A stretch of DNA of 45,526 bases from Cladosporium halotolerans (lineage: Eukaryota). Below the pieces are notes generated by a model. It worked only from the letters and a program-made list of their open reading frames with translations, made no database searches and had not been told where the DNA came from. The translations under genes and the position numbers were made by a program. This document shows positions 12,513 to 15,881 of this stretch, one piece after another (positions within the stretch are counted from its first letter, which is position 1; each line of letters opens with the position of its first letter). Where the stretch lies: the NCBI RefSeq assembly GCF_011745625.1, contig NW_027191466.1, forward strand, positions 558,001 through 603,526, written 5' to 3'.

Positions 12513-13093
12513 GATATAGTATGAGGAAGGCGACTCTCATGACGTACGCCCAGTATACATACACGCACGAAGTAGTATTGTTGGCTACATACGGGCAGCG
12601 ACAACGCGTCCACTTCTCACACTGTCGATTCTGACCAGACTTGGCAGCTTCAACCGATCAACGAAAGTTGTGATATTCATGACACTTTGCCGGGCGCTAG
12701 GAAAGCCAGAGAATACTGACGATCTCAAGAGTCTGTTTAAATCCTCGTTCAAAGCATTTGCTCACCTCTTAAGACGACTAAGTCCTATTGGAAATGAACG
12801 ACATAGGGTCGATAGGGTTAGGGTTGGGGTTATACGCTCAGCGAAACAGCTGGCCAATCCCGCACAATCCCGAAATCGAAGAGCGGCAGCATCCTTGACC
12901 AACTGATAGTCATCAACTTTTGATCACATACTCACATACCGCGAGAACTCCAATCACTTCCTTTGCTCCCTTGATTGCCGTGATGCCTGATCAGCCTCAG
13001 CCCCAAAGTCAGACTCACACATGAAATGTGAGGCAAAACGCTGAACTATCGCCTGTGCCCAAACCCTCACAACAACACCACCGGATCAGAAGA

Positions 13094-14285
13094 TCAGTAT
13101 GTCGCTGTCAGACGCTGAACAAGATACTCGCCGCTAGTGAAGAATGGGTCAGTATCTGAACTCAGGCATGCAAAGGATTGACCCACCTGTTGATTCCGGG
13201 GTACTTCTTCCCCTTCGCCTCGTCGACTGTGTTAGGAATGGCATCGATGTAGCTCTCAAAATTCGGGTTGCAAAAATACGCGATGCTGTATCTCGCAGGG
13301 TGGACTCCGCTCGCAGCCGGCGCAGGCGGCTCAACAACACGATGCTTCGTGCTCTTGATGGTGTCGTTTGACCATCTTGCGAGCAAGTCGGCAGCGTTCA
13401 CGACGATAGTGTCCTCGATGGGTGTGGCGTTGACGAAGTTACCGTTAGGAGAAAGTACCTGCAATCCGCCAGCCATGTCCTGGAAAAGCAAGGTAATTGA
13501 GCCTATGATGTTCATTGTCAGTGGAGTAGGAGAGGATCAATCGCCGGGTAGGGGAGTATACTGCGAGTACGGTCAGCAAGGTCAGTCATGCTGTTCTCAG
13601 AATTTCACACTCACCCATAGTCCGTGTGCGCTCCGGCCCTCACCTTCCTCTCATTCTCCTTGAAGACAGTCGCCTTCACCTCAGGGTAATGCAGGAGTCT
13701 AAGTGTATTGTCTCCCACATCGCAATACTTATCAAACCACTTCTCATCAATACCCAAACCCACAGCAATCGCTCTCATGACCTGCACATGCAAGTCCTTG
13801 CACTTCTCGAAAAAGTCAAGCATGGAAGCCTTGAACTTCTCGCCATCGACCTCAGGCCAATGGTTCGGGTGATCCTTCTCCCCTTCCCTGCCAATCTCCA
13901 AGCTCTCCTTGATATCCTCGCCCTCAGCGGCACGGAGCTCCTCGATTTCTTTGGCATCCGTGAAATCCGTGACTTTCTCGCGGCCTTGAGCTACGTAGCC
14001 TCTGTTCGCCTCTGGCGTTGTCCAAGCCAGAGCGTCTTTCTGGCTTTGCGGACGGGCGAAGAACTCGGCCGACTGTGCAAAGGTATGCTGGACTACGTCC
14101 TTCGGGATGCCATGGTTGCGGAGGTAGATGAAACCGGCATTCTGGAAACCAGAAAGAATGGCTTTAGCAGTGGTGAGTTTGGTTTCGGCGCTTGCGGTGG
14201 GACTGGAGAAAGTGGAGAAGTCGATGAGAGGGATCTCGAGGGAGTCGTGGGAGACAGCTGAGGTCACTTGCGGAATTGCGGTCAT
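13094..14285 (-). CDS. T7H: Thymine 7-hydroxylase / thymine dioxygenase (2OG-Fe(II) oxygenase); exons 14285-13616, 13502-13187, 13133-13094; 341 aa
   Basis: IPLIDFS, GFQNAGFIYLRN, WTTPEANRGY, DIKESLEIGRE, LRLLHYP, RAGAHTDYGSITLLFQD (HxD), TKHRVVEPP (distal His), RYSIAYFCNPN and C-terminal GEYLVQRLTATY closely match the fungal T7H sequence as I recall it. It lies divergent to IDC. Confidence 0.92.
13503..13615 (-). other. Complex intervening sequence: predicted [D1,2]/[A2,3] spliceosomal twin intron (stwintron) in the T7H gene
   Basis: Minus strand reads TAT G | G GTGAGT...GCTGAC...CGCAG TATACT...ACTGAC...CATAG | GC TCA. It has two branch-point/acceptor sets, and single-intron excision frameshifts the HTDYGS motif. 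Confidence 0.8.
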
Positions 14286-14442
14286 GTTGAACAAGTGAGC
14301 TGCGGCTCGGTGATTGAATCTTTGATTGTGGATTATTGAGACTGATAGCTAGGTCGTGGGCGAAGTCGCATTCCATATACCTGGCCTTTTGCGTCTCGAG
14401 TTACGGCGTGAATGGGGTAAAGCCGCCCGGCCAGATTGCTCC

Positions 14443-14572
14443 CTTATCTTTATCATGCGCCTAGGTGGTACACGAGCTTCCGAGCTGCCTGCCTTATCCG
14501 GTATCTTGTTTTGATGTGCTGGCTTATCGCATGCGGCGGGGTCCGGGCCTTGGTGGGGTACGCGACGTGGGG
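14443..14572. promoter_or_regulatory. GATA (AreA-like) and SYGGRG (CreA-like) site cluster in the T7H-IDC bidirectional promoter
   Basis: TTATC at about 14444, 14450, 14494 and 14524; GCGGGG at 14536 and GTGGGG at 14553 and 14567. Confidence 0.55.
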
Positions 14573-14783
14573 ATGAGTACCATTGATGAGGAGCCTAAGT
14601 AGGCACAAGGTAACATAGCAATCTAAGCAATCCAACCCAAATTGAAGAATTAGGCGCTGGTACAAATCCGCTTGATCATTGACTCTGCTTGGCATCCTCT
14701 CCATTCACTTCTTAGTAAACTACCCACTCATACCCTTTGATTCCATCAGAAACCGACTTGCAGCATCGAGAACAACCGCAACC

Positions 14784-15881
14784 ATGCCAGTCGTCGATGT
14801 CCATACCCATGTCTACCCTCCAGCCTATATGGCTCTGTTACGCTCCAGGGGCGAAGTCCCCTACGTCCGCTCATTTCCAGACTCACCCAACCCAATGCAG
14901 GAACGCCTCGTGATCCTCCCCGCCGAAGACACAGCCAGCACTTCGCGAGGACGACCAATCGGGCCCGAATACTACGACATCAACCAAAAGCTGGCCTTCA
15001 TGGACACCCACAGCATCGACATCTCAGTCCTAAGCCTCGCAAATCCCTGGCTAGATTGGCTACCCGCCGACACAGCCGCCAAAACCGCCCAAGAGATCAA
15101 CGACGACGTGAATGCGATGTGCGCCCTTCATCCCGAGCGACTGTACGCTTTCGGTACTCTGCCACTTTCAGCAAAAGCCGGCGACATCGTGGCGGAAATC
15201 GCCCGCCTCAACACGCTCGACCAAATGCGCGGCGTGATCATCGGCACCTCAGGTATGGGAGCCGGGCTCGACGACCCGGCTCTAGACCCAGTCTACGCAG
15301 CGCTGGAAGCTCACGGTCAGATCATCTTCCTACACCCGCATTATGGCCTGCCTTCGTCCGTCTACGGTCCTCGCGCTGGAGACTATGGCCACGTTCTTCC
15401 TCTTGCGCTCGGCTTTCCTTTAGAAACTACAATCGCCGTCACGCGAATGCTACTCTCAGGAGTCTTCGATCGCTTCCCGAAACTGTCCGTCCTTCTCGCG
15501 CATTCGGGTGGCACGCTGCCGTTCTTGGCTGGGCGCATTGAGAGCTGCATTGAGCACGACGGCCACCTGCACGGCCAGCCCGGCTTCAAGTCGAGACGAA
15601 GCGTGTGGGATGTGTTGAAGAACAACGTCTACCTGGATGCAGTGGCTTACGGTAAAGCGGGCTTGAAAGCAGCTGTCGAGGTTAGTGGCGCGGACAGGTT
15701 GATGTTTGGGACAGACCACCCGTTCTTCCCACCTTTGGATGAGGGGCAAGAGAAATGGATGAGTGTGAGCACGAACGAGCAGGCAGTGGCGACGACTTTT
15801 GATGGGGATAAAGAGATAGTGGACGCGGTGATGGGCGGCAACGCGGTGAAGATGCTGAAGTTGGTGAAGACGTCGTCTTAG
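14784..15881 (+). CDS. IDC: Uracil-5-carboxylate (iso-orotate) decarboxylase, amidohydrolase superfamily, 365 aa
   Basis: Starts MPVVDVHTHVYPP (HxH). Contains SVLSLANPWLD, FLHPHYGLP..VYGPR..YGHVLPLALGFPLETTIAV, LAHSGGTLPFLAGRIESCIEHD and LMFGTDHPFFPP, matching fungal IDCases. Head-to-head with T7H. Confidence 0.93.
   Translation: MPVVDVHTHVYPPAYMALLRSRGEVPYVRSFPDSPNPMQERLVILPAEDTASTSRGRPIGPEYYDINQKLAFMDTHSIDISVLSLANPWLDWLPADTAAKTAQEINDDVNAMCALHPERLYAFGTLPLSAKAGDIVAEIARLNTLDQMRGVIIGTSGMGAGLDDPALDPVYAALEAHGQIIFLHPHYGLPSSVYGPRAGDYGHVLPLALGFPLETTIAVTRMLLSGVFDRFPKLSVLLAHSGGTLPFLAGRIESCIEHDGHLHGQPGFKSRRSVWDVLKNNVYLDAVAYGKAGLKAAVEVSGADRLMFGTDHPFFPPLDEGQEKWMSVSTNEQAVATTFDGDKEIVDAVMGGNAVKMLKLVKTSS

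Follow-up and report, generated by a model that had tools for sequence, protein, structure and literature searches.

A probable spliceosomal twin intron in the HTDYG|S glycine codon of a Cladosporium halotolerans thymine 7-hydroxylase gene

In a 45,526-nucleotide (nt) stretch of Cladosporium halotolerans DNA (assembly GCF_011745625.1, contig NW_027191466.1, positions 558,001 to 603,526 of the forward strand; hereafter the window), a minus-strand gene for thymine 7-hydroxylase is interrupted by 113 nt within the glycine codon of its catalytic HTDYG|S motif. We consider it likely that this interruption is a spliceosomal twin intron (stwintron), that is, an intron nested in a splice site of another intron, and this is the only explanation of its precise removal that relies on canonical splice sites. 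The interpretation had been proposed from the sequence alone. It is upheld by RNA contigs of a close relative that lack exactly these 113 nt, by the failure of each of 73 candidate single introns, and by the existence of two routes of successive GT-AG excision, from which we infer the two steps and their order.

The interruption and its loss from RNA

On the minus strand the gene reads CAC ACG GAC TAT GGG TGA GTG.., with TAT at 13619-13617 and GGG at 13616-13614, and the interruption divides the glycine codon that completes HTDYG. The intervening sequence can be parsed with an inner intron that separates the first from the second base of an outer donor ([D1,2]) or with one that separates the second from the third base of an outer acceptor ([A2,3]). 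Its parts are as follows:

13503..13615 in the [D1,2] reading or 13502-13614 in the [A2,3] reading, minus strand: 113-nt intervening sequence, as delimited by the RNA joint
13561..13614, minus strand: candidate inner intron of the [D1,2] route, 54 nt, donor GTGAGT at 13614-13609, acceptor CAG at 13563-13561
13503..13560, minus strand: body of the candidate outer intron of the [D1,2] route, 59 nt when G13615 is included, donor G|TATAC, acceptor TAG at 13505-13503
13503..13561, minus strand: alternative inner intron of the [A2,3] route, 59 nt, first base G13561, the second two-step solution

G13615 stands directly 5' of a complete inner donor, GTGAGT, as in the pattern 5'-G|GTRWGY. Within the 54-nt intron, branch-point hexamers occur twice, as ACTGAC at 13586-13581 and as GCTGAC at 13577-13572; they lie 17 and 8 nt ahead of its CAG and so agree with the [D1,2] requirement for a branch point (DYTRAY) 4-24 nt before the inner intron's own acceptor (HAG). 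A T follows this acceptor (CAG|TATAC), and excision rebuilds a 59-nt sequence, GTATAC..TAG. The outer intron has a branch point and an acceptor of its own: ACTGAC at 13522-13517 is located 11 nt ahead of TAG, and the 3' end CATCATAG finishes at 13503. The arrangement also satisfies the [A2,3] pattern, with TAG|G13502 at the 3' end and G13561 followed by TATAC; after removal of the 59 nt, CGCA and G13502 together form the acceptor of a 54-nt outer intron. Both lengths are comparable with those of intron 2 of the same gene (53 nt) and of the plain introns of relatives (48-66 nt). All coordinates in the sequence-only reading proved exact to the base on the minus strand.

To follow the site in transcripts, we compared three public RNA runs (X15, X16, and X17) and one DNA run (X1), all as assembled contigs. 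In RNA contigs of X15 (1423 nt) and X17, which come from different studies, position 13501 is joined to 13615 and 113 nt are skipped. Two letters at this joint fit either side, and a plain GT13614..AG13503 pair would span 112 nt. Both intervening sequences of the gene are absent from the 1423-nt contig. The mature mRNA predicted from the sequence, GACTATGGCTCA, is thus matched in these contigs of a close relative, and the 112-nt product is not. The precise loss of the interruption from mature mRNA, with no single canonical intron able to produce it, agrees with the [D1,2] pattern.

The 113-nt figure depends on the three G residues at 13614-13616. If GGG were an assembly or sequencing error for GG, a plain 112-nt intron would suffice; a homopolymer miscount is the simplest artefact, and the DNA contig that covers the site, X1, may be the window's own source data. 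This contig, assembled separately in Logan, shows no differences over 13000-14400 at a word depth of 34. The exon-1 open reading frames (ORFs) of the protein cluster, 224 amino acids long, end in HTDYG-stop in three variants: P0245 (23 contigs), P0248 (2 contigs), and P0003 (1 contig). Because GG would let the frame run past the glycine codon, these ORFs on at least 26 contigs support GGG. Further, 112 nt is about twice the length of every other intron seen at or near the site. The three G residues questioned in the sequence-only reading therefore stand, on an identical assembly that may be the window's source and on HTDYG-stop ORFs of at least 26 contigs, and we give an error here very little credence.

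One-step and two-step removal

We translated the products of the alternative excisions. Removal of 112 nt (13614-13503) shifts the frame, ending ..HTDYGLNYLAFPGHGWRIAGTFS-stop, in a product that reads ..HTDYGLNYLAFPG.. before the stop. Removal of 13614-13561 alone gives ..HTDYGILPYPAIDPLLLH-stop. Removal of 113 nt gives a 341-amino-acid protein that contains ..HTDYGSITLLFQD.. These translations reproduce the three outcomes that had been predicted: a frameshift from the 112-nt intron, a stop after inner excision only, and restoration of the frame by two-step splicing. Every incompletely or wrongly spliced form examined in this way encounters an early stop.

The sequence-only reading had also found no other GT/AG pair that keeps the motif. 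None of the 73 frame-keeping pairs in the region yields HTDYGSITLL as a single GT-AG or GC-AG intron, and the one-step removals that leave a glycine codon have only the termini GG..TA, GG..AG, GT..GG, or TG..GC. When two successive GT-AG excisions were enumerated exhaustively (each intron at least 30 nt), exactly two routes gave the mature sequence, and these are the two that had been named. In route [D1,2], 13614-13561 is excised first, followed by the rebuilt GTATAC..TAG of 59 nt. In route [A2,3], 13561-13503 is excised first, followed by the rebuilt GTGAGT..CAG of 54 nt.

Two ordinary U2 splicing reactions would thus remove the 113 nt. On the [D1,2] route the first to leave would be the strong 54-nt inner intron, whose loss would join G13615 to T13560 and create the donor GTATAC; the outer intron would follow. 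By the [A2,3] route, the 59-nt intron beginning at G13561 would leave first, and G13502 would then complete the CAG acceptor of the 54-nt intron. Both routes would yield TAT GGC TCA. The [D1,2] route is probably the dominant one, since its first step uses a consensus donor and its second donor has a G at position -1. If splicing is ordered in this way, it may also regulate the output of the enzyme, and nonsense-mediated decay may have a role.

Alternatively, the interruption might be removed in one step through a non-canonical pair, either GT13614..GG13502 or GG13615..AG13503. A GG at the 5' or 3' splice site of a U2 intron blocks catalysis, and such pairs are vanishingly rare, which counts against this explanation. 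Both pairs are among the one-step removals that leave a glycine codon, the RNA joint is compatible with either because of the two letters that fit both sides, no intermediate was observed, and the outer donor of the two-step scheme is weak. A one-step removal would leave without a role a full second set of signals that is correctly placed (inner branch points, CAG, and the following T), and the same geometry is removed in two steps in other fungi (PMC5587772). We regard one-step removal as unlikely.

Several observations weigh against a stwintron. The outer donor GTATAC, which has A at +5 and C at +6, departs from the GURWGY consensus. At exon positions the RNA contigs differ from the window by about 2%, so that their source is a relative that is about 98% identical; if that lineage had T in place of G at 13614, its 113 nt would be a plain GT-AG intron. 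No splicing intermediate was found among the RNA contigs, a form of data in which rare forms are dropped during assembly. The predicted RNA fold of 13495-13625 has an energy of -27 kcal/mol (z -0.05), revealing no structure beyond chance. Finally, the internal signals might have arisen by accident. In 5000 dinucleotide shuffles of the interior, with both introns required to be at least 40 nt long and to have a branch-point hexamer before the acceptor, the nested arrangement arose 56 times; with the terminal branch point held fixed, a usable nested arrangement arose in 281 of the 5000. The internal signals by themselves are therefore moderately unlikely by chance (1-6%), which is suggestive, not decisive, and the weight rests on the RNA joint.

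The weak outer donor had been flagged beforehand, and GTATAC indeed fits neither the published donor motif GTRWGY (PMC5587772) nor the G1-T2-G5 requirement of later search models (PMC9024468). The published [D1,2] pattern has no match in the window; when it is relaxed at positions +5 and +6 of the outer donor, it has one match, at this site. The G5 of the outer donor is a search criterion and not part of the definition of a stwintron.

The divergence of the RNA source leaves room for a different explanation, in which the extra G is a genuine frameshift, the window gene is a pseudogene, and an ordinary intron is present in the relative from which the RNA came. The RNA that crosses the joint does come from the relative of about 98% identity, and X16, whose contigs are identical to the window, has none that spans the joint. 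Applied to the window protein, the X15 differences reproduce all three amino acid changes of P0003, plus one more. The genomic ORF P0003 finishes with HTDYG-stop; its 142,650-nt contig also bears P0247, which starts MNIIGSITLL like the window ORF. In this genotype, the nearest on record to the RNA lineage, both ends of the interruption thus match the window at the protein level. The glycine codon, read as I-G-S before exon 2, excludes a plain phase-2 acceptor AG|C. These matching ends argue against a pseudogene, as do the intact exon ORFs (exon 2 on 30 contigs, the 224-amino-acid exon-1 ORFs on at least 26 contigs in three variants) and the lack of any other frameshift or stop in the 341 codons. 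The exon-2 ORF of the window is identical to P0244, the one found on 30 contigs. A pseudogene is very unlikely.

Two further observations concern splicing intermediates. The 237-amino-acid ORF of the inner-spliced [D1,2] intermediate is absent from the eight members of the protein cluster. One X16 contig (record 4, 173 nt, no differences from the window, depth 2.6, a single study) ends exactly at 13502, one base short of the position where mature and unspliced RNA diverge and the point at which an [A2,3] intermediate would diverge. With a depth of 2.6 in one study, we did not count this contig end as an [A2,3] intermediate. Fold prediction pairs the inner donor region GGUGAGUGUG with UAUACUCCC, where the two introns meet (13553-13613, minus strand).

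The site in relatives and among known stwintrons

Comparison with orthologs had been suggested as a check on the nested reading, and relatives show a plain intron or none at the site. We scanned metagenome contigs for the 80 loci closest to P0014, none of which is from the Cladosporium clade. At the glycine codon, 66 of these loci are intronless, and 12 (L001-L004, L022, L057-L059, and L061-L064) have a plain phase-1 intron, TAT G|GT..AG|GY, of 48-66 nt. In all 12 the intron sits at the outer intron's position in the [D1,2] reading. The remaining two have an intron a few bases downstream of the site (L072, near 883, and L076, near 790; after ..DYGSI, reading GSIS-E..). A phase-2 intron or a GGGT start at the site was found in none of the 80. 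G5 is missing from the donor in two of the 12 plain introns (GTACCT in L062 and GTACAG in L063), so weakness of the donor does not speak against an intron at this site.

Closer relatives, read from their proteins only, show the same alternatives: lineages with an exon 2 that is 87-93% identical have a plain GTAAG intron of 54-60 nt or no intron. In P0177, P0179, and P0181, whose exon 2 is 89-90% identical, the reading frame continues straight through a plain intron of 54-60 nt that starts G-K (GGT AAG). P0216 has no interruption at the site, and P0006 ends HTDYGKSPT.., indicating a GTAAGT donor. Frame-shifted ORFs read by hand, to which we attach little weight, suggest that P0008 is intronless and that P0171, P0214, and P0017 have plain phase-1 introns of about 55, 64, and 66 nt, respectively.

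The nested arrangement may also extend to Cladosporium fusiforme. This cluster, whose exon 1 is 84% identical, includes P0252; its sister ORFs end HTDYG-stop or, in P0254, HTDYGWVKRKIML, and the same interruption may be present there. A glycine codon followed by a stop in C. fusiforme also fits a plain donor of the GTTAGT type, as in L004. When 21 exon-1 proteins were placed in a tree, a single 12-row clade with support of 86/80 held the window cluster, the C. fusiforme cluster, P0006, P0008, and P0017, and with them the closer relatives above; the interior of this clade is not resolved, and the tree gives no verdict between a single origin and several.

The simplest history would be a single insertion that placed the 54-nt intron inside the donor of an older intron, after G1 and before T2, and the old phase-1 intron position (TAT G|GT..AG|GC) would now hold 113 nt. 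To judge from the plain introns at the same position, origin by entry of a new intron into the donor of an older one is plausible, and the stwintron appears to be confined to part of one genus-level clade. A bolder form of this proposal is that the site records a recent, datable intron gain in a Cladosporium lineage that works with an outer donor lacking G5 (GTATAC), so that searches miss such twin introns; we would put the chance of this at about even. Published search models require G5 (PMC9024468), and twin introns with G5-less outer donors would, if this is true, be missed systematically as a class, leaving gene models at such sites silently wrong. Stwintrons are among the few structures that display intron definition and intron birth in fungi, and the plain ancestral intron in close relatives makes the origin of the inner intron traceable here.

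A related process is the recursive (ratchet-point) splicing of long animal introns, in which a 5' splice site is regenerated after the first reaction. In that process both bases of the regenerated GT are located downstream of the ratchet point; in the arrangement proposed here its G comes from upstream, and one apparent exon base is consumed.

For Trichoderma reesei and Helminthosporium solani, sequencing of the intermediates has demonstrated the dual [D1,2]/[A2,3] geometry (PMC5587772). As in the H. solani alternative oxidase and T. reesei DHA1 antiporter genes, two GT-AG introns here have a single G in common, the 5' donor comes after a G and the 3' acceptor before one, and both routes give the same mRNA (PMC5587772). 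The sizes are comparable (66 plus 88 nt in T. reesei, 54 plus 59 nt here). The present case differs in its gene, its genus, and its shared donor without G5, and the two-step order, established for those genes, is for this one our reading of the splice sites. Of the 1-nt intron shift described in PMC5587772 we saw no sign, as the 80 loci contain no plain phase-2 intron.

Like the [D1,2] stwintrons of Hypoxylaceae and Xylariaceae, the candidate has an inner intron that splits the outer donor between G1 and U2 (PMC9024468; PMC12403724). Many of those stwintrons have sequence-similar "sister" copies, internal symmetry, and strong predicted structure (PMC9024468; PMC12403724), in contrast to the z score of -0.05 obtained here. 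A closer parallel for its history is the [D2,3] stwintron of bioDA, whose relatives likewise keep a standard intron at the position of the stwintron (PMC5639578); in bioDA the inner intron lies between nucleotides 2 and 3 and is ancient, at the class level, while here it lies between nucleotides 1 and 2.

The earlier description of such stwintrons as confined to a limited set of genes no longer holds: a single Hypoxylon strain accounts for 117 listed [D1,2] stwintrons, and a column of the supplementary table marks those that are also [A2,3] (PMC9024468). Table S1 of that paper has no thymine or 2-oxoglutarate entry. Our literature search, which did not extend to the supplements of bioRxiv preprints, likewise yielded no report of a stwintron in thymine 7-hydroxylase, as the sequence-only reading had supposed, or in Cladosporium. 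What would be new here is the gene and the genus for stwintrons and an outer donor beyond the published search motifs.

Gene models, gene identity, and neighborhood

The public annotation of the gene has a different intron at the site:

13480..13643, minus strand: 164-nt "intron" of the NCBI model, GTGAGG..TCCAG, which deletes VRAGAHTDYGSITLLFQ (17 residues)

Excising 13643-13480 and intron 2 reproduces, letter for letter, the NCBI C. halotolerans protein KAL1586180.1 (P0243, 324 amino acids), which lacks the iron-binding His and Asp of the HxD motif. This model uses a frame-keeping GT-AG pair and has been deposited. The 164-nt joint occurs in no RNA contig, and the X15 and X17 contigs contradict the model, covering 13615-13643 and 13480-13501 as exon in both studies. 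Further, the 17 deleted residues, with the iron-binding His and Asp among them, vary little or not at all among 13 full-length relatives. We give almost no credence to the public model. Automatic annotation is stated always to fail on [D1,2] stwintrons, including those of H. solani and T. reesei (PMC5587772), and this failure is seen here in KAL1586180.1. The C. fusiforme model P0250 (KAM0716417.1) has 13 extra residues, SIQISYADTPFTG, between HTDYG and SITLL. Both models would mislead inferences of enzyme content from these proteomes.

With the 113-nt sequence and intron 2 excised in silico, the gene has three exons and a 341-amino-acid product:

13094..14285, minus strand: thymine 7-hydroxylase (thymine dioxygenase) coding region, ATG at 14285, stop at 13096-13094
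13616..14285, minus strand: exon 1 by the [D1,2] route, ending ..CAC ACG GAC TAT G; the X15 RNA contig spans 13615-14324
13187..13502, minus strand: exon 2, (G)GC TCA ATT ACC .. ATC AAC AG, supported by RNA contigs and by alignment to 5c3p residues 221-322
13134..13186, minus strand: intron 2, an ordinary GT..AG intron of 53 nt, GTGGGT .. ACTGAC .. TAG, with an RNA joint 13133->13187 in X15 and X17

Comparison with solved structures supports the assignment as thymine 7-hydroxylase, the name first given from the sequence. Exon 1 matches thymine dioxygenase structures 5c3o and 5c3p (E values of 4e-75 and 6e-75), far ahead of the next family (9e-11), and exon 2 matches PDB 5c3p (1e-43). The Pfam domain DIOX_N is located in exon 1 and 2OG-FeII_Oxy in exon 2. 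In the alignment to the 5c3p chain, residues 6-219 correspond to exon 1 and residues 221-322 to exon 2; because residues 219 and 221 flank the junction, exactly one residue, glycine, belongs there.

The neighboring gene is consistent with this assignment:

14784..15881, plus strand: uracil-5-carboxylate (iso-orotate) decarboxylase, divergent neighbor, matching PDB 4hjw (E value of 2e-131)

Uracil-5-carboxylate decarboxylase acts after thymine 7-hydroxylase in thymidine salvage, the pathway to which both belong. The two genes are arranged head to head, with about 500 base pairs separating their start codons (14285-14784). They form a two-gene thymidine-salvage cluster, probably with a shared promoter region.

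Two minor differences were noted in the RNA contigs. Relative to the window, those of X15 and X17 have eight extra bases after 13037, in the 3' untranslated region, which is a strain difference. In X16 record 3 (window 13135-13244), 108 nt around intron 2 are replaced by 55 other letters, with six differences beyond; at its low depth, this contig is probably the gene copy of another organism.

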